Positions 3,160 through 48,488 are shown, counted from the first letter of the stretch. The stretch: 64,000 bases of DNA from Candidatus Gottesmanbacteria bacterium RIFCSPLOWO2_01_FULL_42_22 (GCA_001779315.1 MFJU01000028.1:614-64613), one strand, 5' to 3'. Notes: a model not told the origin generated them from the sequence alone. Made by a program: numbers and translations.

Positions 3160-3256
3160 CTGCACACAGGGAATCCGCGTTTGAACGGGTATGGAGGCTC
3201 TCCGCGGGTGGGGGCGCGCAGAGCATGGCAAAAGGCTGCCGCAGGGAAACGGAGAG
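3160..3256. repeat. left terminal inverted repeat (~97 bp) of the recombinase unit
   Basis: Its reverse complement matches 4716..4813 with 1 mismatch and 1 single-base indel. Imperfect similarity continues inward to about 3280. Confidence 0.85.
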
Positions 3257-3314
3257 ATGGTCGATTTTTGAAAAGAAGCTCAAAAGAAAACGCAAAAATT
3301 TAAGAGAACTGCTT

Positions 3315-4892
3315 ATGAAATATATTGCTTATTGCAGGAAATCCACAGATGAAAAAGACCGGCAAGTTTTATCCATTGAGGCTCAAATTGCAGAACTTAA
3401 GGAATATGCTCAAAGAGAACATCTGGAAATTGTTGATTTTATAACCGAGAGTAAGACAGCAAAAGAGCCGGGGAGAGGAAAATTTAATGAGCTTTTGAAC
3501 TTAATCGAAAAAGGACGGGCAAACGGGATTGTTTCCTGGCACCCCGACAGACTTGCTAGAAACTCCATAGACGGCGGGAAAATCATTTATCTGATAGATA
3601 CAGGCAAGCTTGTTTCTCTGAAATTCCCTTCTTTCTGGTTTGAGAATACACCGCAAGGCAAATTCATGCTTTCAATTGCGTTCGGACAGAGTAAATATTA
3701 TGTAGATAACCTGTCTGAAAACGTTAAAAGGGGAATAAGGCAAAAACTTCGAAACGGGGTCTGGCCAGGTAAAGCCCCTCTCGGTTACTATAACGATCTA
3801 AAAGTCCATTCAATCTGTATTGATCCGGTCAATTCCAGAATTGTCAAAGCAGCGTTTGAGCTGTTTGTGTCAGGGAATAAGTCATTTACCGATATTGCCA
3901 GGTTTTTATTTTCAAAGGGGATAAAAAGAAAAACCGGAACGATACCACATATCAATCAAATCAGAAATATACTTGCCAATAAGTTTTATGTGGGGATTTT
4001 TTATCATAATGGGGAAATTTATGAAGGAACACATAAGTGTTTTATTTCCAAAGATTTATTCAGAAGAGCGCAGGAGAGATTAAAAAAGCTGGATAGGCCA
4101 CGAAATAAAGGCCATAACTTTCCGTTTGTCGGGATTGCCAGATGTAAGGAGTGCGGGGGAGCTGTAACCGCGGAAATCCATCGAAAATTCTATAAAAGTA
4201 CTAATAGACATGCGGATTATATTTATTACCGCTGTACCAAAAAATTCGGCCAGTGTTCACAAAAATATATTTCCGAAAATAATTTTGAAAAACAATTGAG
4301 AAAAATTATTTTAGATTCCTCTTTGCCATTAAGTTGGGAAAGAAATTGGAGAAAAAGGCTTGCAGATGTGGAGATAGACGAGCAAAAATCGGCACTAACA
4401 AAAATTACTCAATTAAAAGAGGATTATTCAGAGGTGAACACAAAACTTAACCTGCTTCTTGATAGCTTTCTTGACCGGACGATTGAGGCAGAAATATACA
4501 AGTCCAAGAAAAACGAGCTGATGGAGAAACGGATGAGAATTCAGGAGAAAATAGGAGAGATTGAAAAGAACGGCTCCAGTTGGCTCGAACCTATGAGAAA
4601 TTTTATGGATAGCGCCTTGCAGGCGCAAAAAAGCGCGCGGGCTAAAGATAATAACCAAGAATTGGGAATTATTGGTAAAACTGTCGGCTCGAACTTCTTT
4701 TTGGAAAATCGCCGACTCTCCGTTTCCCTGCGGCAGCCTTTTGCCATGCTCTGCGCGCCCCCACCCGCGCAGAGCCTCCATACCCGTTCAAACGCGGATT
4801 CCCCTGTGTGCAGGGCCAGGTGGAGTCGAACCACCATCAAAGGTTTTGGAGACCTCTATTCTGCCATTGAACTATGGCCCTATCGACCTTGA
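3315..4892 (+). CDS. large serine recombinase (resolvase/invertase-type catalytic N-domain, recombinase and coiled-coil regions)
   Basis: N-terminus MKYIAYCRKSTDEKDRQVLSIEAQ matches the large-serine-recombinase motif with the catalytic Ser in YCRKST. The ORF reads through the right IR and tRNA with no stop until 4890..4892, so the real C-terminus is uncertain. An in-frame upstream ATG at 3225 lies inside the IR. Confidence 0.8.
   Translation: MKYIAYCRKSTDEKDRQVLSIEAQIAELKEYAQREHLEIVDFITESKTAKEPGRGKFNELLNLIEKGRANGIVSWHPDRLARNSIDGGKIIYLIDTGKLVSLKFPSFWFENTPQGKFMLSIAFGQSKYYVDNLSENVKRGIRQKLRNGVWPGKAPLGYYNDLKVHSICIDPVNSRIVKAAFELFVSGNKSFTDIARFLFSKGIKRKTGTIPHINQIRNILANKFYVGIFYHNGEIYEGTHKCFISKDLFRRAQERLKKLDRPRNKGHNFPFVGIARCKECGGAVTAEIHRKFYKSTNRHADYIYYRCTKKFGQCSQKYISENNFEKQLRKIILDSSLPLSWERNWRKRLADVEIDEQKSALTKITQLKEDYSEVNTKLNLLLDSFLDRTIEAEIYKSKKNELMEKRMRIQEKIGEIEKNGSSWLEPMRNFMDSALQAQKSARAKDNNQELGIIGKTVGSNFFLENRRLSVSLRQPFAMLCAPPPAQSLHTRSNADSPVCRARWSRTTIKGFGDLYSAIELWPYRP
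4716..4813. repeat. right terminal inverted repeat; its last 3 nt overlap the tRNA-Trp 3' end
   Basis: See the left IR entry. Confidence 0.85.
4811..4881 (-). tRNA. tRNA-Trp (anticodon CCA)
   Basis: Cloverleaf folded by hand on the minus strand: acceptor AGGGCCA/TGGCCCT, D arm GTTC-AATGGCA-GAAT, anticodon arm GAGGT-CTCCAAA-ACCTT, 4-nt variable loop, T arm GGTGG-TTCGACT-CCACC, discriminator G. CCA is not encoded. Close to E. coli tRNA-Trp. Confidence 0.85.
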
Positions 4893-10736: not shown

Positions 10737-11504
10737 ATGCTCTGTCCTGATTGCAATCATCTACTGCAGAAACTGTCGGTGACCACCAAAGAGGGAGGAC
10801 GATTTGAAGTGGACCACTGCGGACGCTGCGGCGGCACCTGGTTTGACCCCTATGAAATCAACCGCATCCCATACCATGAAGTGGTTTCCCTGGCTCAATT
10901 GACGGTGCTGCCTCTTAAAAAAACGCCGGTAACCCAAAAACAGTTGTGCCCGCAGGACCATCAGGAGCTTTCTCCCCTGACCGGCGATGCCGTACCCCGC
11001 TCAGTGAAGCTCTTAACCTGCAGGAAATGCTTAGGCATCTGGGCCTCTCAAAAAGACCTCTGGCAATTCAAAAAGCACCAGCAAGACGTCATATCAGCTT
11101 ATGATGAAGGCAATAAATTCTTTCCCAACCTTTCCGTGGTTTTTGTGCCGGCTGTGACACTACTGCTCTTATTAATAACCACATTTACTACCATTTCGGG
11201 GCTGCAGAAACAAAAGGAAGACAGAATCATGGCAGAGGAGATCATCTCCAACCTGTCCCTTTCCAGGATCGCCGACGAATCCCTGGGGGTAACTTTCGAA
11301 ACAGCCGTGTCTGTCACCTCGGAAATATACTTGGGAATATCCGAAACAGCCGTTGTCAGGATACCGGTTTCCCCGCTCCCTTCCGTTTCCCACGCCACCA
11401 TCGTCAGAGGACTAAAAAAAGGACAAACTTATACTTATCAGATTGTCGTGACCGACTCTTCCGGTAAAACCTACCGCAGTCAGTACCAAACCTTCAGATT
11501 CTAA
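10737..11504 (+). CDS. tandem zinc-ribbon membrane protein with a C-terminal beta-rich domain
   Basis: CPDC...CGRCGGTWFD and a second CPQD...CRKCLGIWAS zinc ribbon, then a TM helix. Confidence 0.55.
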   Translation: MLCPDCNHLLQKLSVTTKEGGRFEVDHCGRCGGTWFDPYEINRIPYHEVVSLAQLTVLPLKKTPVTQKQLCPQDHQELSPLTGDAVPRSVKLLTCRKCLGIWASQKDLWQFKKHQQDVISAYDEGNKFFPNLSVVFVPAVTLLLLLITTFTTISGLQKQKEDRIMAEEIISNLSLSRIADESLGVTFETAVSVTSEIYLGISETAVVRIPVSPLPSVSHATIVRGLKKGQTYTYQIVVTDSSGKTYRSQYQTFRF

Positions 11505-35886: not shown

Positions 35887-36909
35887 TTAGTTATTTTTTT
35901 TAGAGAGAGGTATTTTATCCACAGTTTGTCGAATCTGGTCATGACTTCCATCAAAGTTATATAAATCAGACCAGGTTTCGATCCTGATAATTCCTGAAAG
36001 CGACTTACGACTTACATCTACTTGGAAAGACAGTTCAAAATTATTCCCAAAAGAAATATTGTAGTTGTCTATCACAAATGTATTTGTTTCATCATAATAA
36101 ATTTGGCCCCAACCAGCTTGATTGGAACTGAAGGATGATGTTTTCTGCATTCCCGATGGTAAAATGATTTTCATAAAAGGATCAATGGCGACATTCATTT
36201 CTGAATTTGGAATTACTTTAATGGTGATAATAAAAGTTTTACTTCCATTTACTCCTCCCGGATCGAGATCGACAGACACCGAAGATTGCGGTGTGATCAT
36301 GAGGGGATTCGTGTCAAGTATATCCGTTTTAGCTTTGGCTTTCGCTTCGGCTTTATTAAGCAGATCAAGATCATCGGGAGAGTCTGTGAGTGAAAGATCA
36401 TCAGTCAGGGATAAATTAAAGGGAAGCAGATTTAATTTATCGATGATATCTTTAAGATAATATGGAGGGGTCCAATTTTTCTCTTTAGGTTTTTCTTCAC
36501 CCAACATATCCCAGTCGATATTGCCGGACGGATCTGTAAATCTTAGCGGATTATTCCGTACATATGCATATCTATTTGTTCCGTCACTGGCAGTATCTGC
36601 CTGGGTGAATTTGCCGATTGTAGGATTGTAGTAGCGGGCATTGTAGTAGTAGAGGCCGGTTTCATCAGTATCGGAGACCTGGCCGGTATATTGTCTCTTT
36701 GTAGTCAAGTTGCTGTCGGCTGACCTGGTTTCACCAAAGGGATAATAGACCTGTTTTGAGGCTTTCTTGCCTGTACTGTCAGTCGTCAGCACGGTTGAAC
36801 CCAGATGGTCCTGGTGGACAAAATAGAGGATTTCTGCGGCAAATATGGAGCCTGGCAAAAGCAGACAGAGCAAAAGAAGAAATAATATCAGGTAGATTCT
36901 CAATTTCAT
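35887..36909 (-). CDS. RHS core + C-terminal domain cassette 2: signal peptide, RHS repeat-associated core, unknown 200-aa C-terminal domain
   Basis: Core LYFVHQDHLGSTVLTTD...YYYNARYYNPTIGKFTQADTASDGTNRYAYVRNNP is almost identical to cassette 1. The tail is unrelated. Confidence 0.7.
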   Translation of the reverse strand: MKLRIYLILFLLLLCLLLPGSIFAAEILYFVHQDHLGSTVLTTDSTGKKASKQVYYPFGETRSADSNLTTKRQYTGQVSDTDETGLYYYNARYYNPTIGKFTQADTASDGTNRYAYVRNNPLRFTDPSGNIDWDMLGEEKPKEKNWTPPYYLKDIIDKLNLLPFNLSLTDDLSLTDSPDDLDLLNKAEAKAKAKTDILDTNPLMITPQSSVSVDLDPGGVNGSKTFIITIKVIPNSEMNVAIDPFMKIILPSGMQKTSSFSSNQAGWGQIYYDETNTFVIDNYNISFGNNFELSFQVDVSRKSLSGIIRIETWSDLYNFDGSHDQIRQTVDKIPLSKKNN

Positions 36910-37279
36910 ATCTTCTACCTCAGTCTATAACAAATCAAATCAGGAAAGCAAAAGATCATATTAGTGTTAGAAGATTTCACTCGTAATGGGAATTATATGG
37001 TCCATCAATTAATTGTTATAAAAGATATCCGAGGATGAAAAAGCTCCATTTCCTCAACCATACTCTAACTTAGAATTTCACTCTCTCACCCTCAAGCAAG
37101 TATATACCTAATCTCTATTCGCTCGGCAGCTAATAAAAGCATTGGAGAGGGCTGGTTTTCAGATAGTTTCACAAATAAGAGGGAGTTCGAAGAATATGTT
37201 TAGTCCAACATAAAATCCCCGAGGTGTCGAATCTATTCCACCTGGGAGGAGAAAAATAAGGTGGAAATTTTATTTATTT

Positions 37280-38473
37280 TTAATTCGGATGGAAAGGAGT
37301 CCGTTTCTTCTTTGTAAAATCATAAGCTTCAAAAGATGATGCATTTGGATATTTTTCTTCTAAATATAAATCAAGAAAATCGACTCTTAAACCTGGATCT
37401 TTTACATAAATAGTCGAATCTGATGTTAAAATAGATACTTTATGACGTATTTCATCTCCTGTTGGCTTAAATTTTCCTGTTTTAAAAGACAAGTCTGTTG
37501 CATCAAGTCCTTGATATCTTGCGGCATCAGTAAGTAGCGCAGCTCGATGCCTACATATCCCGCCACAACCAGTATTCCATAAATTTGTAAAACCATTTTC
37601 TGCATCCATCATCTCATCAGCAAGACTTGCTGACTGAGAATTATAAGGAACACTTTTATTTATGATATCACCCAGCTCATCAAACTTTGAAACTGGGGTA
37701 TCCATTTCCGTAGTTTGCATAGCCAAGTATTGGAATAACTCTTCATCGCTACTAAACTGGGGTGTAGCTGTAGCTAACACATCATCAATTTGTGTTGATG
37801 CAGCAGTTCCAGGTAAAGGATTGATACACTCAGGACCTCCACCGCTAGCTAAACAAAGACCGGTGTCTGCTATTTCTAATAGTGGTCCCAGAGGAGGAAA
37901 TATCGGAATCAACATTGCCAGGTAAATACTCGTGATCGCTGCTACATCCGACAAAGATGCATCAGCTCCTGGGCCTATTGGCGGTACTCTTCCTCCTCCA
38001 CGGTGAGCTCCGGGTTTTGTTTCATCAGGTGGCGGAGGTGGTAGTTCGTCTTTTCCCGGAAATGCGCTTTGGTGTCCTGAAGGATCAACTAAAGCAATTG
38101 GATTATTTCTGACATATGCATATCTATTTGTTCCGTCACTGGCAGTATCTGCCTGGGTGAATTTACCGATTGTAGGATTGTAGTAGCGGGCATTGTAGTA
38201 GTAGAGGCCGGTTTCGTCCGTATCGGAGACTTGGCCGGTATATTGTCTCTTGGTCGTCTGATGGCCGACCGGTAATGATTGTTTTCTGGTTTCTCCAAAC
38301 GGGAAATAGACTTGTTTGGAAGCATTCTTGCCGGTTGTGTCAGTGGTAAGTAATGTACTACCCAGATGGTCCTGATGGATATAATATAGAGTTTCGGCGG
38401 ACAAGACTGAAGCAGGGGCAAACAGTGAAAATAAAGTAAGTAATATTAAAGCGACGATTTTTTTAGCTACCAC
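37280..38473 (-). CDS. RHS core + C-terminal domain cassette 1: signal peptide, RHS core, poly-Pro linker, unknown 260-aa C-terminal domain
   Basis: LYYIHQDHLGSTLLTTD...RYYNPTIGKF core. The tail has Cys/His/Asp candidates (GCGGICRHRA, IRHKVS, KDPGLRVD). Starts 3 nt after the RHS stop. Confidence 0.7.
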   Translation of the reverse strand: MVAKKIVALILLTLFSLFAPASVLSAETLYYIHQDHLGSTLLTTDTTGKNASKQVYFPFGETRKQSLPVGHQTTKRQYTGQVSDTDETGLYYYNARYYNPTIGKFTQADTASDGTNRYAYVRNNPIALVDPSGHQSAFPGKDELPPPPPDETKPGAHRGGGRVPPIGPGADASLSDVAAITSIYLAMLIPIFPPLGPLLEIADTGLCLASGGGPECINPLPGTAASTQIDDVLATATPQFSSDEELFQYLAMQTTEMDTPVSKFDELGDIINKSVPYNSQSASLADEMMDAENGFTNLWNTGCGGICRHRAALLTDAARYQGLDATDLSFKTGKFKPTGDEIRHKVSILTSDSTIYVKDPGLRVDFLDLYLEEKYPNASSFEAYDFTKKKRTPFHPN

Positions 38474-38475
38474 TC

Positions 38476-41400
38476 TTATTTAAAATCTAAAATAGTAAAG
38501 TTTATTTCCCCCGGGGAAAGTTTTAAGTTAACCACCGGCGTAAATGATCCAAACTTTAACTGGGGAATCGCAGTCGGTGTTAAAACAGCCGGATTTACAG
38601 TCGGAGTTGGAATAGTTTCCGGCAGCGGTTGATTTGCCGGTTTTAGGAAAAATATTTTGGCGATAAAATCCAAAATCAAGTCCACTAAACTAAGTTCCGG
38701 TTGATTTTGAGTTCCCAAGACTGTTTGCTGGTTGGCAGAACCCTTGATTTCCACAAAAATCCGATAATTTCCGGGCTCTTGGGGCACGGTATAATCCCAG
38801 GAACTTTGATATCGACCGGGTGTATCAGCTAATTCTTGAGCCGGAATCGGATCAGATATTTGTATTTCTTGTCTGTCTCTTTCTACATGAAAGATCATGC
38901 TATCAACTTTAATGTTCGGCTTAAGTGTTTTGGCAAAGGCAGTCAAAGTGACTTTATATCCGGCAAAAAAATTACCGGAATAGGTAAGACCATCGTTATT
39001 ATAGGATGTTGACAGATTTTCCCTGACGGCCGCTAATTTTCCGGCAAAGAAGTAATTTTGCCGCCAGCCGACTTGCGTATCGGGGTTGATGACGACTTCC
39101 AGCTCCGGATTAATATAATAAGTGCTATCGGCCCCGGTAATAATTTTGGCGATTCTAGCGCCCGTGGCATCATAGTAAAATTTGCTTTCTTTAAAACGAG
39201 AATCAACAGGAGAAACTTTTATAAGCCGGTTGTCCTTATCGTAAGTGTATAACCGCTCTGAATCCGAGGCGAGATTACCTACTTTGTCATAAGAATAGGT
39301 GTTAGTTTTTGAAGCGTCAGTTACCGTTAGCGGACGATGATAGAAAGAGCCGTTATAATCACTGTAGGCAAGAGTAGTTGTTGAGGAACCTTCGGTTTTA
39401 CTTAAAATGTTGTTAAGATCATCATAAGAGTAGTTGGCAGTATAGGCACCGGCCACATCCTTTAAACGGCTTAAGGCATCATAAGTAAAATTTTGGGTAA
39501 GGTAAAAAGGACTGGCAGCAGGAACCATGGGGTTATCGTCATTGATTTTTCTAATATTACCAAGCGGATCATATAGATAAGAGATCTTAATTTCATCTTT
39601 ATCAGCAAGAGCAGTCCCTATCACTTTCAATGTAGTCAGTCTGCTGTTGGTTGGATTATAGGTGAATAAGTTATTAACACCGTTACCGGAGGAAAATCTA
39701 ATTAATTGGCCGTCTTTGTTATAGCGGGCATTGGTGACATAATTGTTTGTTCCGGCAAGTTTCGTCAAATAAGGACGATTATAGGTATAAGTGATGGTTT
39801 CTGCAGGAATTGATAAACTGGTACTGCCTGATCGGGTTTGCGTTTTTACTCTTCCGCCCAAATCATAAGTAAAAGAGGTGCTGAAATTTTGGTTATTGAT
39901 GGCAGTATTGGGTAAATTTGACAAAGTCAAAGTACTGCTTGTCACCCTACCGCGGTGGTCATATTGGGATTTGACAGTTTGCAGCAAAGATCCGCTGCTT
40001 AAATCATATGAGCGCACTTGGCAGGATTTGCCAACTCCGTTGGTACAGCTATCGTAAATGTTTTCCAGAAGTAAAGTGGAATTTACTGATTTGCTTAAAA
40101 GTCTGTTAAGGGAATCATAAGAAAGAGTAGAGACATCACCCCGGGGATTGGTTTGAGTTTTGAGATTGCCGATTTTATCATATTCATAACGCCAGGAATT
40201 TACATCTCCGCTCATACTTGGACTCATATCGGCATCCCACATCCTGGTCTTTCTGCCCAAAGTATCGAATTCAACTATATTAATTACATTAGTTAATGTG
40301 TCTTTAGTTGTGGTTACAGAACCTAAAATCGGATGATATTCAAAACTGGTGGAATAAGTTTTACTGTCAGCAATTTCTTTAACTTCGAGAGTTTGTCCAA
40401 AAGCATCTTTGGTTGTCTGGTTGAAAGTACAAAGTGTTGCTGGATCAGTATCGGTACAGTTTTTATTGGAAGATTTAGTTAGCAGCGGATTTCCGCCCAC
40501 ATCATACTCGGTCGTCTCACTTGTTCCGTCAGGATAATTGACCGTAGTTGCCCTGCCCATTCCATCATAGGTGTATTTTACCTTTTGGATATTGGCACTA
40601 CCGGCGAAATCTCGGGTATCGAATGAGTTTTGTGTGCTTGGAATATAAGGATTTGCCGTGTAGTTAAGGCTCTGGTATTCCGGCTGACCCAAAGCATTAA
40701 ATGATTGGGATTTGATGATATCTCTGAAGGCATCGGCCACCGGTAGACCGGCATTTGAATACTCGTTTTCATACCAGAGTTGTCGAGTCTGAACAGTCTG
40801 GCCCAAGCCGTTATAATATGTGTGGGTTGCCGAGACTTTGCCGGCAGCACCGTTATCGGCAAAGCGGGAGGCGCTGTAAACCATCATTTTTGGACCTTTA
40901 CCATTCAATTGCTTACCTAGTCCTATCAAACAGTGATTAGCATCGTTACACGGTGCGATATCATCTCCGTTGAAATAATAATATTTGTTGAAAGAATCGG
41001 CTTTGGTACTGCTGGCAGGGTTCTTGCCCGGCAGGTAGGTCTCGGTAGCTCTTCCAAAAACATCATAAACACTATTGCTGACCTTGCCATTGGCATCTGT
41101 GACCCGAACAGGTATGCCCAAAACACCGCCATAATTGGGATGGGTGGAATCGGCGATATTAAAATCATAGACTGTCGTGGTTGACTGCCCCAAATTGTTG
41201 GTAACTTTTAGCGGATACAGATGAAAAACATTGTCATAAGTGGTGGTGCTGGATCGTCCCAAGGGGTCGGTGATTTTTGTCACTAACCAGGGGTAAGTCG
41301 CGTCGTAAGCGGAAGTCGTATCAGCATAAGCAGATCCGTTAATTAAGACGCTGGTTTTAGTCGGCAGGCCGTAGCTATTGTAAGTTATTTGGCTGTGATT

Positions 41401-43995
41401 GTACTTGGTTCCTGTTGGAGAACTAGCAGTCCAGCTTTCTTTGGGCCGAGGCAGAATCCATTTGAGAGTGTCGGCGTCTGTATAGTCGGTGTAGGATACT
41501 TTTTTGATATCAGAAGTATCATCCTGGTTGGGATCACTACAGCTCACCTTACCGTAATTAGTGGCCGTATGCAGCTGGGCATAAACATCATCAGTGCCAT
41601 CAATTTTTCTATGATCAGTGAATGTTTTAGTACAAAGAACTGCATTGTCTCCGACGAATTCTTTACTGACGTTATCTCTGGGAATAACCAAAGAAATGGA
41701 TGTTTCCGGATCGTAAGTGGCACATTTGTCATTTAAATTCCAGTCATAATAGCCTTCCCAGGGACCAAACATCGGACCGAAACGGATGGTAGAGCTGGAG
41801 GATGTTTCAGTTCTGCGGCCAGGTTTTTGCACATCGAAATTTATCGTTTTATAAGCAATTCCTTTCAAGGGACTGGGTTTGAAGCAAGTGGCAGTATCGA
41901 GTGCCTGGTAGTAAAATGATTTGGATTTAGCAACGACCTTATCGGTTGAATTTTTTTCATAGACAGTTGTTTCGACCTCGGGGTAACCCAAAAATTCAAA
42001 ACCGGAGAAGCTGTTGAAAATTTCCGCTCCCTCATCTGTTTCGCTATAATTTTTGACAGCTCCAAGACCCAAAGTAGCTCCGTTTCCGCTATAGTCATAG
42101 TTGGTCCGGACGCTATTTCCCATGCCATCCTCAACTATTTGGCTACTTATTCTGTGCCTTTGGGTGTTGAATTCATTGTCGGTCTTGCAGGTTTCTCCGT
42201 TTAGAGCTACTTTATCCGTGTCGCAGTATTTGATATTGAGAGCATTATTATTGGTGGCATCTTTCCAATACTCAAAAGTGACTTTTCCGCCATAGCCGTT
42301 TTCGGCTGTTTGCAAAAAGAAATCAGAGGGGGTTTTTACCTGATCAAGCAAATTCCTACCCCAAACAAATGAGGATAGAGGGCAGCCGCCCTTAAATTCT
42401 GCACAATCAGTACCGTAAGAAAAGGTATAGTTTGGCAGGCGTTTGGCGTGGGGATTTACATCAGGATCGTCACTGTAGACTTTAATAATCCTCAAAAGAG
42501 AATGAATAACCTGACCGTCTTTTACCTCCGCATCGTTTTCGGCTTTCCCGTCGCCATCGTCTAAGTGTTTTGCCGGAACCCAGCCGTATGAGTAATCCAA
42601 AACGTAAACCTTTCTTACCTTACCCAGAGTTTTGACAATTATTTTCTTCAGCCTTTCCAAATTACGGAGAGGTCTTTTGGGACTTGGGTTATCACCCTGG
42701 TGGATTTTATAGTCAAGTCTAGCCTCTCTCTGGAAAGAAATCTCGTTTTTTCCATAAGTAATAGATGACGGATAAACGGCTGAGACGTATCTATCGCCAT
42801 GCCCAGCATCTTCGATTTTCAGATTATAGCTATAGTTGATTTCAACAGGAACAGTAAAGATACTTTCAACTTTCGAGAGATACCATCTGTAGGTAAGGGA
42901 ATGATAACCGAGGGTATTGTTGCCCCAAATCAACCAGGCGTTGGGGCCAACGGGGCTTGAGTCATTGTCATATAAGGGATACCAGTCGTATTCTTTATTT
43001 TCCAGATCCTCATTGGTATCCGGGTCGTATGTTTTTTGCCAGGCTGTGGTGGTCGTTGGAGTGCCGAAATAATGCTTTGTACCATCTCCGGTTGTTACCA
43101 GCCAGTGATATCTGCAAAAATAGGTACCATCGTCGGCAGCATCTCTTTTGCATCTTGACCATCTTTCCACTTTCACTTTCAAATTTGGCACTGTCCTCCA
43201 GACACTATACTTTCCGTAATCAGTTCCTGCTTCACTTTCTTTTGATAAATTAGCACTACCGCCTGAAAAGGCTAAAATAAAGGCGTCATCACTCTGACCG
43301 GTTAGGGCACGCATGGATGAGCCTTTGGTATCCCGGGCGATATATTGTACTCCACCCAAATTCCAACCCAAACCAACCATGCCAGACTGATTCTGGTAGG
43401 GATGGTCAGTCCAACCCCGATAGCTGGTAAGAGTACCTAAGTTGAGATCATCAACACTTGAGGAGGAATAAGAAAGATCAAGTGAGGGAGTAAGGCCAGC
43501 AGGACCGGGCGGCAGATCAATAGGGTAGGAGACAGTAGCAGCTCCATTGAAGGCGTCGCTGCCAAAAGCTCTGCTGGATGGTAATTGCATGTTAGAAGTG
43601 CCTGCCTCATCAGAAGCAGCTGCCAGCGGATCGAAATCGCTTGTCACTCCTTTGACTCTCGGATTCTCTTTTTCAATCTCTTTGAGGAGCAAAACATAGT
43701 CCGGTCCATCAATTACATCATCGCTATTATAATCGTAGAACAGATCCTGGGTTTTGAGTGCCTTAAAATAGCCGGGAACGGATGGTTTAATAAGCCCAAA
43801 TTTTTTCAAAGAACGGCGGAAAGCCAGAGTGTTCTTTGCCGGAAAAATATTCTTTTTAATGATCAAAAAAGCACCAAGAGATATCAATGATAAAATTAAA
43901 ATCGTCAGGAAAATTACCTTGAGTTTGGGAGACCAAGTTTTATGAATGTCAGGCACGTTTAACTTAACCGTATTACAGAAAAGGATAACCGTCAA
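38476..43995 (-). CDS. RHS/YD-repeat family protein (1839 aa) with an N-terminal TM anchor and a T/P-rich tail ending LKFGSFTPVV
   Basis: Dozens of YD-type repeats (YDxxGRL, TYDxxGN, YxYDxxG). No core domain inside this ORF. Confidence 0.8.
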   Translation of the reverse strand: MTVILFCNTVKLNVPDIHKTWSPKLKVIFLTILILSLISLGAFLIIKKNIFPAKNTLAFRRSLKKFGLIKPSVPGYFKALKTQDLFYDYNSDDVIDGPDYVLLLKEIEKENPRVKGVTSDFDPLAAASDEAGTSNMQLPSSRAFGSDAFNGAATVSYPIDLPPGPAGLTPSLDLSYSSSSVDDLNLGTLTSYRGWTDHPYQNQSGMVGLGWNLGGVQYIARDTKGSSMRALTGQSDDAFILAFSGGSANLSKESEAGTDYGKYSVWRTVPNLKVKVERWSRCKRDAADDGTYFCRYHWLVTTGDGTKHYFGTPTTTTAWQKTYDPDTNEDLENKEYDWYPLYDNDSSPVGPNAWLIWGNNTLGYHSLTYRWYLSKVESIFTVPVEINYSYNLKIEDAGHGDRYVSAVYPSSITYGKNEISFQREARLDYKIHQGDNPSPKRPLRNLERLKKIIVKTLGKVRKVYVLDYSYGWVPAKHLDDGDGKAENDAEVKDGQVIHSLLRIIKVYSDDPDVNPHAKRLPNYTFSYGTDCAEFKGGCPLSSFVWGRNLLDQVKTPSDFFLQTAENGYGGKVTFEYWKDATNNNALNIKYCDTDKVALNGETCKTDNEFNTQRHRISSQIVEDGMGNSVRTNYDYSGNGATLGLGAVKNYSETDEGAEIFNSFSGFEFLGYPEVETTVYEKNSTDKVVAKSKSFYYQALDTATCFKPSPLKGIAYKTINFDVQKPGRRTETSSSSTIRFGPMFGPWEGYYDWNLNDKCATYDPETSISLVIPRDNVSKEFVGDNAVLCTKTFTDHRKIDGTDDVYAQLHTATNYGKVSCSDPNQDDTSDIKKVSYTDYTDADTLKWILPRPKESWTASSPTGTKYNHSQITYNSYGLPTKTSVLINGSAYADTTSAYDATYPWLVTKITDPLGRSSTTTYDNVFHLYPLKVTNNLGQSTTTVYDFNIADSTHPNYGGVLGIPVRVTDANGKVSNSVYDVFGRATETYLPGKNPASSTKADSFNKYYYFNGDDIAPCNDANHCLIGLGKQLNGKGPKMMVYSASRFADNGAAGKVSATHTYYNGLGQTVQTRQLWYENEYSNAGLPVADAFRDIIKSQSFNALGQPEYQSLNYTANPYIPSTQNSFDTRDFAGSANIQKVKYTYDGMGRATTVNYPDGTSETTEYDVGGNPLLTKSSNKNCTDTDPATLCTFNQTTKDAFGQTLEVKEIADSKTYSTSFEYHPILGSVTTTKDTLTNVINIVEFDTLGRKTRMWDADMSPSMSGDVNSWRYEYDKIGNLKTQTNPRGDVSTLSYDSLNRLLSKSVNSTLLLENIYDSCTNGVGKSCQVRSYDLSSGSLLQTVKSQYDHRGRVTSSTLTLSNLPNTAINNQNFSTSFTYDLGGRVKTQTRSGSTSLSIPAETITYTYNRPYLTKLAGTNNYVTNARYNKDGQLIRFSSGNGVNNLFTYNPTNSRLTTLKVIGTALADKDEIKISYLYDPLGNIRKINDDNPMVPAASPFYLTQNFTYDALSRLKDVAGAYTANYSYDDLNNILSKTEGSSTTTLAYSDYNGSFYHRPLTVTDASKTNTYSYDKVGNLASDSERLYTYDKDNRLIKVSPVDSRFKESKFYYDATGARIAKIITGADSTYYINPELEVVINPDTQVGWRQNYFFAGKLAAVRENLSTSYNNDGLTYSGNFFAGYKVTLTAFAKTLKPNIKVDSMIFHVERDRQEIQISDPIPAQELADTPGRYQSSWDYTVPQEPGNYRIFVEIKGSANQQTVLGTQNQPELSLVDLILDFIAKIFFLKPANQPLPETIPTPTVNPAVLTPTAIPQLKFGSFTPVVNLKLSPGEINFTILDFK

Positions 43996-44160: not shown

Positions 44161-45213
44161 ATGAATGATACGCAAGTTAATTCCCGACAAATAAAAATAT
44201 TACAATATCTCTGGACAAAGCCGACTACAACGCGCAAAGACATCGAGTCCGTTTTTCCTCAAGGATCAGTTTCCAGAATTACCCTGATTCGGGACCTTAA
44301 TAACCTCATCGAAAAGGGAATGATTCAACAATCCGGAGGTGGGAAATATATCAAATATTCACTTGTTCCGGACAAAGAAATCTTAGTACCTATAAATATA
44401 AATGAATATTTTCAGAGTCCGATTGATACTCGTTATGTCCGATACCCGTCATTCAATAATGGAGTCATCATTAAGCTTAACAACCTGTTTTCAAGCGATG
44501 AACTCCGTATATTTGAGCAGGGAAGAAAGCAGTTGCAAAGTCGCTTTGAAACTGTCGATCCGTCAATCATCAAACGGGAACTTGAACGGTTTACTATTGA
44601 ATTCTCCTGGAAATCATCACGTATTGAAGGAAACACCTATTCTCTATTAGAAACTGAGGAACTGATTAAAAACAAAAAAGAGGCACAAGGACACTCAAAA
44701 GAAGAAGCAATTATGATTCTCAATCATAAATCTTCTTTTGATACGATACTGGCCAACAAATCAACATTCCGGCAAATCAGCGAATATGATATCCGGTCGA
44801 TTCATAAAGAACTTGTCAAGGAACTCGATATTACCCCAAACATCAGGGAATATGGAGTTGGTATTACCGGCACGATATATAAACCGTTAGATACAAAATG
44901 GCAGATTGAGGAATCGCTTCATGCTGTTGTGGACCACGTCAAATCTGTCACAGATGTTGCGGAAAAATCTCTCATACTGCTGGCGATGATCTCCTATCTC
45001 CAACCTTTTGTCGATGGAAATAAACGCACCGCCCGGATGGTAAGTAATGCAATACTATTGGCAAACGGATATTATCCCCTTTCATATAGGAGCGTTGATG
45101 AAGTTGAATTTAAGAAGGCTTTGATTCTTTTCTACGAACAGAATAATCTTTTCCATTTGAAACGGATATTTTTGGACCAGCTGCAATTTGCAATTCAACA
45201 ATACTTCGTCTAA
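44161..45213 (+). CDS. Fic/Doc-family protein with an N-terminal winged HTH and a degenerate motif (QPFVDGNKRTAR)
   Basis: The canonical HPFx[DE]GNGRxxR has H replaced by Q and G by K (motif at 44998..45036). Confidence 0.6.
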   Translation: MNDTQVNSRQIKILQYLWTKPTTTRKDIESVFPQGSVSRITLIRDLNNLIEKGMIQQSGGGKYIKYSLVPDKEILVPININEYFQSPIDTRYVRYPSFNNGVIIKLNNLFSSDELRIFEQGRKQLQSRFETVDPSIIKRELERFTIEFSWKSSRIEGNTYSLLETEELIKNKKEAQGHSKEEAIMILNHKSSFDTILANKSTFRQISEYDIRSIHKELVKELDITPNIREYGVGITGTIYKPLDTKWQIEESLHAVVDHVKSVTDVAEKSLILLAMISYLQPFVDGNKRTARMVSNAILLANGYYPLSYRSVDEVEFKKALILFYEQNNLFHLKRIFLDQLQFAIQQYFV

Positions 45214-45578: not shown

Positions 45579-46109
45579 TTAAGTTAAGGCTTTGTCGAAG
45601 ATGGATTTGATGAATTTTACTTCATAAAGGGTCAGGTCACGGCTTTCTCTAAAATTGATTTCATGTTTTTGCGATATTTCCAGCTTGCCCCGATTGTCGG
45701 AGAGCTGGCTATAGCGGAAGCGGCTGAAAATAATTTCCGGCCAAATATTTTTCACCTTTTCATCAAATAAGGACAAATTCAGCCTCCACGTCTCTATATC
45801 GGGTGTGCCTTCAGGAATGATATCCGAAATCAGAGTCACTTCTGAAAGCTGCGGCTGATATTTCCGCTTATCCTTATTTACCTGCGGCAAGACCAGAGTC
45901 TTAATTTTATATAAAGGAAAATTATTGGGTATATCAGTCAATTCCATTTCTTCTCCTTTCTGATACCAAATTTTTTCGCTGATATTGCCCTTTTTCCCCT
46001 CGTTTTGCAGCAAACTATAGAGATTTTCGAACCAATCTGACAGCAGACTTTCTTCGGGTTTACGGTAGATATCCAACCAGGAATTCAAAGACTTTAAAAT
46101 CCTTTTCAT
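45579..46109 (-). CDS. hypothetical protein
   Basis: Internal Met (MKRILKSLNSWL) chosen as the start. The track ORF extends to 46262 and overlaps the next gene. Confidence 0.4.
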   Translation of the reverse strand: MKRILKSLNSWLDIYRKPEESLLSDWFENLYSLLQNEGKKGNISEKIWYQKGEEMELTDIPNNFPLYKIKTLVLPQVNKDKRKYQPQLSEVTLISDIIPEGTPDIETWRLNLSLFDEKVKNIWPEIIFSRFRYSQLSDNRGKLEISQKHEINFRESRDLTLYEVKFIKSIFDKALT

Positions 46110-46165
46110 ATTCTTATGATAACTCACGAATGATGACACTGGAAAGGAGAAAAGGGGAAGACAAC

Positions 46166-47119
46166 TTAGATCCTGGAGGAAGTATAGGAGAAGATAACCA
46201 TGTACGTAGATAAGGACATGATGCCAAGGCCAAGCCAGAAAAGAGTCAGGAAGGAAAAACATGTACTATTCAGCCCAAATAAAACAGTCAAAACCATGAA
46301 TAAGGCTAAGGCCAGGGCAATGATCTGAAAATTTTTCCGGCGGTAAATTTTGATAAAGATCCAGGACAACAACATTTGAACGGCAAAACCGATCAAACCC
46401 CAATAGGAAATGCGGCAGGTAGCGCCGCGGAAAAGAGGTGACATCCAAAGATTAGACCGGCCTGCAACCGGCCTGGTAGCTCTAGCTTCCTCGATGCCTA
46501 AAACAGGCACCACAGTCACGACAGTCCTGTTTAAATCGGTCCTGATGACAAAACGGGAAAAAGCAGCTCCCTGGTTCAAAGTCGGGGTAGGAGTCGGACT
46601 GGGAGGTGTGGAAGTAGCCGTCGGACTTTCGGCAGGGGCAAGCAATCCGATTTTCATACTGAAGGATAATGACTGGTCTGCCAAAGTATTGCCGGAAGTT
46701 TTGTCCATCAATAAAACGAGCTGATACTCTTTTATTTCCTGGACATCAATTTCTCCCAAGGAAATCTCGTCGTTATTAAAGACTTCGGTAAAAGTACCCG
46801 TCCAGACTGTTGAACCACTGGGTAAAGACTTGACTGTCAGGCTGGTCGCCGAAGTAATTGCTCCTGTGGATGATTCGTCATACGTACCCAGAGCCGCGCT
46901 TTTTTTACTGCCGGAGGTATTGTGGATTCGGAAAGTCTTAGAAATTTCTTTGCCCGGATACCATTTGTCTGTCGGGAAATAATCGGTCACCGGAGAGGGG
47001 GTGCAGCCGGAATCATTGCAGGTCAGATCAAGATCGGAGGCTTGTACTTCCTGCCGGACTAACAGACTGCAGAATTGAAACAGAGAAAATATTATGAATA
47101 TTAAAATTAGTTTCTTCAT
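46166..47119 (-). CDS. secreted protein with a C-terminal multi-TM region, in a cluster with SipW/TasA-like genes
   Basis: Signal peptide, beta-rich middle, T/P-rich linker, 3 TM helices at the C-terminus. Confidence 0.55.
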   Translation of the reverse strand: MKKLILIFIIFSLFQFCSLLVRQEVQASDLDLTCNDSGCTPSPVTDYFPTDKWYPGKEISKTFRIHNTSGSKKSAALGTYDESSTGAITSATSLTVKSLPSGSTVWTGTFTEVFNNDEISLGEIDVQEIKEYQLVLLMDKTSGNTLADQSLSFSMKIGLLAPAESPTATSTPPSPTPTPTLNQGAAFSRFVIRTDLNRTVVTVVPVLGIEEARATRPVAGRSNLWMSPLFRGATCRISYWGLIGFAVQMLLSWIFIKIYRRKNFQIIALALALFMVLTVLFGLNSTCFSFLTLFWLGLGIMSLSTYMVIFSYTSSRI

Positions 47120-47140
47120 ATATATAGATTTGCAAAAAAT

Positions 47141-47178
47141 CCCGGATCGTCATACCTACGACGATCCGGGATCGTTAG
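47141..47178. repeat. 40-bp palindromic repeat, copy 3; acts as a terminator on the minus strand
   Basis: On the minus strand, stem ATCCCGGATCGTC, loop GTAGGTAT, stem GACGATCCGGGAT, then TTTTTT. Contains the stop codon of the SipW-like gene. Confidence 0.8.
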
Positions 47179-48488
47179 AAATTGGATTCCAGATGATAAA
47201 TTTTTCCGGTTACACTGGCCACATCAAGACCCAGTTTGAGATTTTGAATGCCTGTATGGGGGGTGCAATCCGGTGGCGAACAGGTGCCCAAATAGAAACT
47301 CTTGCTGTCTTCGGCTTGACCCGACAGGGTTACTGTACCGGAATATGCTTGAGGCAAAGTATCGGTATCATAAGTCAAACTGTAATTATAAGAAACAAAG
47401 CGGGAAAGCCGGCTGACAGTGTATGAGACATTCTGACCGTCTTCTGAAAGGCTGGCCGATAAAAGAGGCGGCCGGGAATCGATAGTTGCTTTCCAAACCG
47501 AACTCCAGGGACTGCAGTTATCCAGACTGTCACAGGATTTGACCCTCCACCAGTAAGTGCCGTCGGGCGTACCCGGAGCCGGAATTTGCGAATTTGTTAG
47601 TTTGCCAGACTGGTAAGCCAGGGGTGAAAAACCGCTATTTCTGGCACTTTGATAGATATAGTAAACGGGATTATTCATATTCTGCCAGTCACTAACATCC
47701 GACCAATCCATGACCAATCCATCCGTTTCCCTGACGATATTATCGGGCGGAACAATCAGCAAAGGAGACGCAGGCGGCACATAATCTTTAGACGAGATAG
47801 AAACACCCGATACAATCGAGGCGGATGAAAAAAGCGCGGTGATCTGCCTGACAAAAAAAGGACTAAACGTAAAACCGGCCAATACGGAAGCGATGAAAAT
47901 ACCTGTCAGATTATAAGCCCGTTTCTTTGCCAATTCATCAAATCCGCTAAGAATTTCCCTGATTTGCCAAATGATTAAAAGCAAACCCGGAATTCCCACC
48001 AATAGCAAAAAACCGACAGACGACCGGACGGCAGAAGCCAGAAACCCCAAATAGGGAATTGACAAAAACCATAAACCGCGCACCATGGATGTGGAAACTT
48101 CCCATTTATCAGCCTCGCGGTTATTATCTCCTTTGGTGAAGAAAAGCCTGCGGCCTTGCGAAATCTTTATCTTTTCTACCCGGTGAAGAACGGTTTTACT
48201 TTTATCCTCCGGGGAATAAAAAGCAATGATATCTTTTTCACGTACTAAAACAGGATCAATCGGCAAAACCAGGGCAACCGCGCCGCTCTTTATTGCCGGC
48301 GACATGGAACCCGAAGTGACAATAAAGCTGGAAAAGAGGTTTTTGGTCGGTAAATACGGGGAAGCCACAACCATCAAAGCCGAGAGGATCATGGAAAAAA
48401 TAAACCATTCGGCAATCTTTCCGAATTTGAATAATATTTTTGGCCAATGTTTCGTATTTGGCCTGTCTGGATCAAGTCTTTGATACAT
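47175..48488 (-). CDS. SipW-like type I signal peptidase with a long C-terminal extension (TM plus ~250-aa beta-rich domain)
   Basis: VTSGSMSPAIKSGAVALVL (catalytic Ser box) and TKGDNN box as in B. subtilis SipW. Confidence 0.65.
   Translation of the reverse strand: MYQRLDPDRPNTKHWPKILFKFGKIAEWFIFSMILSALMVVASPYLPTKNLFSSFIVTSGSMSPAIKSGAVALVLPIDPVLVREKDIIAFYSPEDKSKTVLHRVEKIKISQGRRLFFTKGDNNREADKWEVSTSMVRGLWFLSIPYLGFLASAVRSSVGFLLLVGIPGLLLIIWQIREILSGFDELAKKRAYNLTGIFIASVLAGFTFSPFFVRQITALFSSASIVSGVSISSKDYVPPASPLLIVPPDNIVRETDGLVMDWSDVSDWQNMNNPVYYIYQSARNSGFSPLAYQSGKLTNSQIPAPGTPDGTYWWRVKSCDSLDNCSPWSSVWKATIDSRPPLLSASLSEDGQNVSYTVSRLSRFVSYNYSLTYDTDTLPQAYSGTVTLSGQAEDSKSFYLGTCSPPDCTPHTGIQNLKLGLDVASVTGKIYHLESNF

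Follow-up and report, generated by a model that had tools for sequence, protein, structure and literature searches.

The cocoon of the RHS protein RhsA is sealed by its conserved C-terminal region, which runs as a spiral within it (PMC8765631). The cocoon can also be built from two polypeptides, as occurs in Tc toxins with TcB and TcC (e.g., TcdB2-TccC3, or YenB with YenC1, YenC2 or YenC3, the latter also known as RHS2), and a single TcB pairs with several alternative TcC proteins as cargo subunits, one of which is encoded at a distant "orphan" locus (PMC11067744). In the canonical Rhs loci of E. coli, Salmonella and Serratia, an array of modules made of a core and a variable tail lies downstream of a large YD-repeat gene (PMC3482391). 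A classical orphan rhs cassette of this type is 5'-truncated, has no translation or export signals of its own and is accompanied by an immunity gene. Here we describe a locus found at positions 35,887 to 43,995 of a 64,000-nucleotide stretch of Candidatus Gottesmanbacteria bacterium RIFCSPLOWO2_01_FULL_42_22 (GCA_001779315.1, MFJU01000028.1:614-64613; hereafter the window, to which coordinates refer), in which a large RHS/YD-repeat gene without a core, the shell gene, is followed by two small genes, cassette 1 and cassette 2, each encoding a putative signal peptide, a complete RHS-associated core and a C-terminal tail. On balance, we consider it probable that these genes specify a two-part, Sec-exported RHS cocoon, in which an anchored shell would be closed outside the cell by interchangeable subunits that serve as plug, protease and cargo.

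Gene organization of the locus

The three open reading frames (ORFs) are co-directional on the minus strand, at the coordinates that the earlier note on this DNA had reported. The shell gene (38476..43956) encodes 1826 aa from a GTG at 43956, according to the NCBI and European Nucleotide Archive (ENA) gene calls, and in the ORF list its frame is open back to a TTG at 43995, which would give 1839 aa. The shell matches Pfam RHS_repeat (3.5e-17) and TIGR01643 (2.2e-10), and gives no match to the RHS-associated core model TIGR03696, which bears out the earlier description of a shell devoid of core. The same core model is matched by cassette 1 at aa 56-134 (E = 3.8e-22) and by cassette 2 at aa 55-129 (E = 2.7e-22). 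The gene of cassette 1 (37280..38473, minus strand; NCBI A3J20_03395) encodes 397 aa that comprise a signal peptide, the core, a Pro-rich linker, a pre-toxin module and a peptidase-like tail, and that of cassette 2 (35887..36909, minus strand; NCBI A3J20_03390) encodes 340 aa with a signal peptide, the core, an acidic linker and a beta-sandwich tail. Both products are annotated as "hypothetical".

At the junction between shell and cassette 1 (TAA-GA-GTG, 38471..38478, minus strand), the shell stop TAA at 38476..38478 is followed by GA and then by the GTG at 38471..38473 that opens cassette 1 in a different frame. The earlier note had placed this stop at 38474..38476, a position that has to be corrected, while its observation that cassette 1 begins close by holds, with 2 nt between stop and start. 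The arrangement can be read as translational coupling of the two genes; stop/start overlaps of 4 nt are found in the related loci L001 and L076. Cassette 2 starts with an ATG after a spacer of 370 bp (36910..37279, minus strand), and is preceded by a GAGGT ribosome-binding site (36917..36921). Promoter and terminator scans of the locus were at or near background, with the sole notable site being a 10/12 promoter-like match in this spacer (36992..37019), upstream of cassette 2. A search of the locus against Rfam gave no match, and the spacer showed no coding or nucleotide similarity to the other fetched loci except for a 28-nt match at chance level.

The short distance of 2 nt and the change of frame between stop and start raise the question of whether the split is an artefact or the trace of a decaying gene, arising from an assembly error, from a recent nonsense or frameshift mutation, or from a fusion by programmed frameshifting. 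We regard this as scarcely credible. Four assemblies, namely NCBI GCA_001779415.1 and three from ENA, agree at every base of the 8109-bp region, and for this reason the stop codon and the gene boundaries are supported at the assembly level. The shell frame contains a second stop, TAG, two codons past the TAA, and the frame of cassette 1 is closed two codons upstream of its own GTG; a fusion would, in addition, bury a signal peptide inside the protein. The stop codon, the change of frame and the signal peptide separate shell and core, so that repeats, core and toxin do not form one polypeptide. Furthermore, 181 aa lie between the last strand of the shell and its stop, the same split occurs in 13 distinct loci with differing junction sequences, and the two cores of the window have diverged to a synonymous distance (dS) of 0.85 with a dN/dS ratio of 0.14. 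Given the four identical assemblies, the 13 loci and this divergence, the recent split of a fused gene that the earlier note had kept as an alternative is rejected, together with assembly artefact and frameshift fusion.

Complementary ends of shell and cassettes

The strongest argument for a joint function comes from the position at which the RHS is divided. Shell ends and cassette starts were mapped by blastp, locus by locus, onto the coordinates of a fused RHS protein of 1966 aa (L010), which is encoded on the same contig as the split locus L016. Residues 517-1658 of the window shell align to residues 54-1590 of this protein in three segments, the longest of which has 955 aa and 44.5% identity. 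The YD-repeat body of the shell (39019..42447, minus strand) ends with "...NYFFAGKLAAVRE", the last strand before the position where the core starts in fused RHS proteins, and this end corresponds to position 1590 of L010. In a first class of loci, which comprises the window, L001, L002, L005 and L076, shells end at 1590-1594 and cassettes begin at 1594-1601 (1586 in L002, whose ORF start is doubtful). A second class is divided earlier: the shell of L016 ends at 1511, one repeat before, just past a Cys-rich knot, and its cassette begins at 1535, and in L008, where the shell end was not resolved by blastp, the cassettes begin at 1531-1533. The fact that the matched ends shift together at two split points means that shell end and cassette start co-vary and that, taken together, the two genes amount to exactly one RHS, and this indicates that shell and cassette are probably parts of one machine. 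The earlier note had taken the cassettes for independent secreted proteins. Their own export signals are in agreement with this, but full independence is improbable given that they appear to supply exactly what the shell lacks.

The layout is conserved among relatives. Lengths of 220-580 aa are found in nearly all of the best 120 relatives of cassette 1, of which the named ones belong mostly to bacteria of the Microgenomates group within the Candidate Phyla Radiation (CPR). A scan of species-representative genomes with the core alignment returned 75 loci. In those nearest to the query core (L001-L018, labelled as or resembling Patescibacteria), the core is found in short signal-peptide ORFs. 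Its usual settings in other phyla are fusion to a repeat region exceeding 1000 aa and fragments without signal; signal peptides outside L001-L018 were found in Omnitrophota, in a Verrucomicrobia contig and in Peregrinibacteria. The combination of a coreless shell with cassettes was observed in 13 distinct Microgenomates loci, on Gottesman-, Woese-, Ames- and Roizmanbacteria-type contigs. All of these 13 shells have one to four cassettes downstream on the same strand, most of them within a few nucleotides of the shell or with overlapping stop and start codons; the exceptions are L016, where some 500 nt intervene, and L008 and L082, with one extra small gene between shell and cassette. An independent search of metagenomes with a part of the shell (aa 1366-1659) gave five close relatives, all of them coreless and followed by one to four cassettes, most of which are 12-22 nt apart.

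In L001, the shell has 1725 aa and is followed by cassettes of 415, 368 and 381 aa, adjacent genes being separated by 4 nt or overlapping by 4 nt. The shell of L002/L081 has 1855 aa as the ORF of L002 and 1844 aa by the gene call of L081, with at least two cassettes, and L008 has a shell of 1467 aa (plus an ORF of 306 aa) and two cassettes. Single cassettes follow the shells of L005 (2191 aa), L016 (1671 aa), L076 (1914 aa), L082 (1847 aa) and L083, in which the shell is split into three ORFs. Shells broken into two or three consecutive or overlapping ORFs were seen in L083 (2410..8950), L084 (1971..7107), L086 and L088, for example as 558+1215+407 aa. In L087, the shell of L086 is present as a single ORF, so that frameshifts of assembly or strain origin may account for some of these breaks. 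The small gene between shell and cassette of L082 (8605..9000) belongs to PF05635, the 23S rRNA intervening-sequence protein (IVP) family with a four-helix-bundle fold, and a second copy is located at 11172..11495. Several related contigs carry dubious taxon labels: L003, L007, L010, L012, L013 and L016-L018 are labelled "uncultured Gammaproteobacteria/Pseudomonadales", and their cassettes are nearest to proteins of Roizman- and Woesebacteria and their gene content is CPR-like, which suggests that they are probably mis-binned or mislabelled metagenome-assembled genomes.

Signal peptides and cores of the cassettes

The N-termini of both cassettes are predicted to be Sec-type signal peptides, the substrates of signal peptidase I, which are recognized by a basic n-region, a hydrophobic h-region and small residues at positions -3 and -1; the cleavage sites in the family follow the pattern V-x-A. 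On the basis of the N-terminal sequences and of the family-wide -3/-1 pattern, cleavage is predicted between VLS and AE in cassette 1 (aa 1-25, 38399..38473, minus strand) and between IFA and AE in cassette 2 (aa 1-24, 36838..36909, minus strand). A K/R-containing n-region followed by a hydrophobic core was found in 63 of the 73 class-1 relatives. Position -1, which lies 10 residues before DHLGS, is Ala in 54/73, and position -3, two residues further upstream, is V, A or T in 54/73. The earlier proposal that the core-plus-tail modules are separate genes with signal peptides of their own is thus upheld by their own starts and by these Sec-type features. The predicted mature N-terminal peptide of the cassette is AETLYYIHQDHLGSTLLTTDTTGK, and in class 1, which comprises most of the relatives, the predicted mature N-terminus runs straight into ETLYYIHxDHLGS, with ETLYYIHQDHLGS as the first strand of the core. 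In class 2, one extra repeat, "FLYDGSGQRIAK...YYISP...", is placed between signal peptide and core.

The core of cassette 1 (38075..38398, minus strand), the putative plug and aspartyl autoprotease, contains DHLGS, Asp109, Asp130 and the motif P-IALV-DPSG, and that of cassette 2 (36523..36837, minus strand), also supported by tblastn, contains DHLGS, QAD at aa 103-105 and DPSG at aa 126-129. The Asp dyad and the cleavage motif PxxxxDPxG are kept throughout, with D109, D130, P131 and G133 (cassette 1 numbering) being invariant or nearly so in the alignments. D109 and D130 correspond to D1324 and D1346 of RhsA, and P-x4-D-P-x-G corresponds to its cleavage consensus PxxxxDPxG (PMC8765631). Release of the tail by autoproteolysis is putative, and what the sequences show is the conservation of its motif. 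The solved structures that match the core best at the sequence level are TcC-type subunits (RHS2, 6e-16; also TccC3, TccC2 and YenC2), and the Rhs proteins of type VI secretion systems (T6SS) represented in the PDB match it at 1e-7 or weaker.

The two cores of the window share 83% of their protein sequence and 82% of their DNA sequence over 301 nt. The values of dS and dN/dS given above show that they are an old duplication of which both copies are under constraint. Shared DNA identity of this kind, in a tandem array downstream of a main rhs gene, is also what classical silent orphan cassettes would display, that is, a recombination reservoir that swaps into the main gene and in which the hydrophobic N-termini are incidental. 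The ortholog L076, which has the same N-terminal two-thirds as cassette 1 and a different toxin tip, would be compatible with such an exchange. This explanation is nonetheless very improbable, given that the main gene has no core into which orphan cassettes could recombine. Start codons, ribosome-binding sites and signal-peptide features have been kept in the cassettes although the two signal peptides are only 28% identical, orphan fragments of other phyla have no such N-termini, and the cores are under purifying selection and come without immunity genes.

Tails of the cassettes

The tails of the two cassettes are mutually unrelated, as the earlier note had observed, and a scan against NCBIfam returned nothing beyond the core for either. 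In cassette 1, the predicted cleavage site is followed in the translation by a Pro-rich linker, HQSAFPGKDELPPPPPDETKPG... (37952..38074, minus strand); a poly-Pro stretch also follows the core in RHS2 (PDB 5kis_B). Next is a pre-toxin module (aa ~175-225, 37799..37951, minus strand), made of a hydrophobic helix, VAAITSIYLAMLIPIF, and of the spaced motif D-T-x-x-C, 6-9 residues, C, and then N-P-x-P-G. The module matches no Pfam family and is common to about 21 of 90 tails, which then diverge into otherwise unrelated effector domains. It may be a membrane-interaction or translocation element. The effector domain of tail 1 (37283..37771, minus strand), for which the structure alignment was built from 10 relatives of the first search, has a papain-like alpha+beta fold with a Cys-His-Asp triad (candidate residues Cys307, His344 and Asp359), which places it in the transglutaminase-like cysteine peptidase superfamily. 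A homolog search with this domain alone returned one near-identical fragment only. The exchange of tips in L076, in which core and linker remain those of cassette 1, shows that tails have been exchanged over evolutionary time.

Tail 2 (35902..36294, minus strand) is an all-beta domain, an Ig-like sandwich of the pilin, collagen-adhesin or cohesin type. The AlphaFold2 model is of moderate confidence (block-mean predicted local distance difference test score 58-79), and Foldseek matches it to BcpA, SpaD, EbpB, Cna/ACE and cohesin at E values of about 1e-4 to 1e-3, so that it is similar to pilins of Gram-positive bacteria, to collagen-binding adhesin domains and to cohesin, as well as to chitin-binding domains; no Pfam family was matched. 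Homologs are few, with 3 in a word-indexed search and 4 in an exhaustive search. P0121 and P0122, two secreted Cys-rich proteins, also end with this domain, and 8 stretches of P0123, a protein of Ig/RTX type, match it more weakly (E 2e-5). From the model, tail 2 looks like an adhesin-type binding module rather than an enzyme.

Across the family, the tails fall into 46 sequence clusters among 107 relatives, with a median length of 261 aa (interquartile range 252-274). This narrow range, close to the size of TcC cargo, is consistent with a limit set by the size of a cavity. Few tails are annotated, and those that are belong to transglutaminase-like, peptidase C39-like, methyltransferase and pretoxin-HINT families; no nuclease, deaminase or ADP-ribosyltransferase family of Pfam was matched. 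An HExxH motif is present in 27/90 tails, where by our own estimate less than one would be expected by chance. Overall, the payloads look envelope- or surface-directed.

Immunity genes

No ORF of the size of an immunity gene follows either cassette, in agreement with the earlier note. The spacer between the cassettes has no ORF longer than 26 aa, and the 105-bp gap after cassette 2 has no ORF of at least 40 aa wholly inside it and was judged too short for a conventional immunity gene. In the tightest related arrays, cassettes overlap or are 5-22 nt apart, which leaves no room for immunity genes. The gene that follows the cassette in L076 (11305..12285) encodes 326 aa with a lipoprotein-like signal (...SAWMAAC) and a trypsin-like "GSGGICF" motif, and from its sequence it is not an obvious immunity protein.

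Features of the shell protein

The shell has a single hydrophobic span near its N-terminus (aa 27-46; VIFLTILILSLISLGAFLII, flanked by K; 43858..43917, minus strand), a feature seen in its translation and shared by the ortholog L076. It is read as a putative signal anchor that would tether the shell to the membrane. A segment at aa 203-317 (43045..43389, minus strand) matches SpvB (Pfam PF03534), the type of N-terminal region found in TcB and other RHS proteins, weakly (E = 3.4e-5, 23.6 bits versus a cut-off of 22). Against PDB sequences, phmmer gave a weak match to Tse5 only.

Past the split point, the shell continues with a C-terminal extension of about 181 aa (38479..39018, minus strand), formed by a beta-rich segment, a P/T-rich linker and a short conserved end. 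The T/P-rich end that the earlier note had described is therefore present, as part of an extension that lies past the point where a core would begin. The extension matches no Pfam or NCBIfam family and has no similarity to tail 2. It is conserved in L076, with a longer linker, and in other shells the extensions range from 2 to 403 aa past the split point.

A dockerin/EF-hand-like motif, "YDYNSDDVIDGPDY", is found in the window shell just past the membrane anchor (43705..43737, minus strand), and a similar one, "DADFDNNGVINGVDFGIW", is found at the C-terminal end of the shells of L084-L088. A contact of the dockerin-cohesin type between these shell motifs and the cohesin-like tail 2 is conceivable, the sole support for it being the Foldseek match to cohesin, at rank 25.

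Proposed assembly and its weighing

We propose that the large gene encodes a YD-repeat cocoon with its N-terminal anchor in the cell membrane, which stops one strand before the core, and that the small secreted proteins supply the missing core in trans. In all RHS proteins of solved structure, the core turns inward, seals the cocoon and contains the aspartyl autoprotease. Removal of the signal peptide would expose the first strand of the core, downstream of which are the protease dyad, the PxxxxDPxG cleavage motif and a cargo of about 260 aa. Outside the membrane, the cassette would dock on the open shell by strand complementation and close it, and would then cleave itself after DPSG, so that the tail would be left as cargo or would be displayed as a domain. 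One shell would be the object of competition between several cassettes, two in this locus and up to at least four elsewhere, and for this reason different payloads, here a transglutaminase-like cysteine peptidase and an adhesin-like beta-sandwich, could be loaded on one scaffold with no need for recombination. Shell and cassette would cross the membrane unfolded and mature only outside, and this, together with payloads that look envelope- or surface-directed, would explain why no immunity gene is needed. The broader proposal, that the cocoon completed in trans outside the cell acts as a single surface device of an ultra-small episymbiont, in which each closing subunit would consist of a plug-protease of about 110 aa and a cargo, with alternative effectors (peptidases or binding domains) against host or competitors and with immunity unneeded given that nothing matures before export, is more tentative, and we consider it somewhat less than evenly probable.

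Several observations weigh against the proposed assembly. Cassettes with signal peptides and no RHS shell within 10 kb were found in L014 and L015 (Patescibacteria), L033 and L060 (Omnitrophota) and L071 (Peregrinibacteria), and these may act by themselves or together with a shell encoded farther away. The signal peptides are predictions from simple sequence rules and not from a trained predictor. The binding of shell and cassette is deduced from complementary ends and gene linkage, a tail of 260 aa would have to enter a pre-formed extracellular shell, and the variable extensions of 2-403 aa at the docking point might hinder docking.

The cassettes without a nearby shell also agree with the main alternative explanation, according to which cassettes are autonomous secreted pro-toxins in which the core is a self-cleaving leader or chaperone that frees the tail after Sec export, and the shell is a separate surface protein, such as an adhesin. 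Each cassette has its own start, ribosome-binding site and signal peptide, and payloads such as peptidases and an adhesin-like domain look capable of extracellular action. We find this explanation unlikely, though it deserves consideration. It leaves unexplained the matched shell ends and cassette starts at two split points, the presence of cassettes behind every coreless shell, in many cases with translational coupling, and the narrow range of tail lengths. In solved RHS proteins, moreover, the core consists of strands packed inside the cocoon (PMC8765631), so that folding and cleavage of a core on its own would be unlikely.

The layout of a coreless shell with separate core-bearing cassettes is conserved across the Microgenomates group, and no published description of it was found; the literature search, which was of incomplete coverage and therefore gives only an absence of evidence, returned no description of signal-peptide-bearing RHS core genes or of split RHS in CPR bacteria. 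If the two-part cocoon is real, the RHS/Tc cocoon, an encapsulation device that is widespread, can be assembled in a new way, in which a minimal separate plug subunit closes and loads it after export. Such a system could also serve as a natural model for loading cargo in a modular manner, which is relevant to the delivery of proteins with Tc toxins (PMC6868009). The effector repertoire of Microgenomates is large, diversifying and mostly unannotated, with HExxH motifs in about 30% of the tails, papain/transglutaminase-like peptidases and adhesin-like domains, and provides concrete candidates for how these uncultured bacteria act on their partners. A polymorphic toxin system that is consistently without immunity genes bears on the distinction between kin competition and host interaction.

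Neighboring genes

Directly upstream of the shell gene and in divergent orientation, a gene at 44161..45213 (plus strand) encodes a 350-aa protein with an N-terminal winged-helix/helix-turn-helix region and a Fic domain (PF02661, 6.9e-12). It is absent from L082, a locus that is syntenic with the window and has the same GalT-like and MerR neighbors, and for this reason it is probably outside the RHS system. Upstream of the Fic gene there are three co-directional genes (45579..48488, minus strand) of 227/176, 317 and 437 aa with no Pfam match; a clear signal peptide and a hydrophobic C-terminal end are seen in the product of 317 aa. The sole tRNA of the window is a tRNA-Trp (CCA) at 4810..4881 (minus strand), antisense within the 3' end of a putative, mechanically called ORF of 555 aa (3225..4892, plus strand).

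Comparison with described systems

Like the canonical Rhs loci, the locus has polymorphic tails, the PxxxxDPxG motif and the Asp dyad. It differs from them in that the core is missing from the main gene, each cassette is a complete gene with a signal peptide, there are no immunity genes and delivery would not proceed through a T6SS. With start codons, a GAGGT ribosome-binding site and signal peptides of their own, and with no immunity gene, the cassettes differ likewise from a classical orphan rhs cassette.

In teneurins, a YD shell is membrane-anchored, as proposed here, and the C-terminal domain can sit outside the shell, where it serves binding and not toxicity (PMC8765631); such an exposed domain is a possible parallel for the adhesin-like tail 2. 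Unlike the system of the window, teneurins are single-chain and eukaryotic, and their plug is not cleaved. WapA is also a single polypeptide that includes the core, is accompanied by an immunity protein, and has orphan modules that are not known to carry signal peptides. The WapA-type RHS toxins of Gram-positive bacteria (e.g., PMC12704120) share with the proposed system an N-terminal Sec signal, a cell without outer membrane and the folding of the cocoon after export.

The closest parallel is found in the TcB-TcC sub-complex, from which the locus also differs in several respects. The split point is about 570 residues later than that between TcB and TcC, with the cassette matching only residues 580-725 of the TcC-type RHS2; TcC contributes hundreds of repeat residues, whereas the second subunit here consists of zero or one repeat and the core. 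Shell and cassette have a predicted anchor or Sec signal, which implies assembly outside the cell, while TcB and TcC assemble in the cytoplasm. No TcA-like translocator is found among the annotated neighbors, the genome as a whole not having been searched for one, and the host is a CPR bacterium and not an insect or mammal pathogen as for Tc toxins. The core of the cassettes is nearest to TcC cores (E ~1e-15), the predicted cleavage site precedes a poly-Pro linker, like that of RHS2, and the Tc BC sub-complex, like this locus, has no immunity genes. For the SpvB region, which TcB combines with a beta-propeller gate, the shell gives a weak match just above cut-off. In TcC, as in the cassettes, a second polypeptide carries the conserved core with its aspartyl protease and, C-terminal to it, about 30 kDa of cargo.

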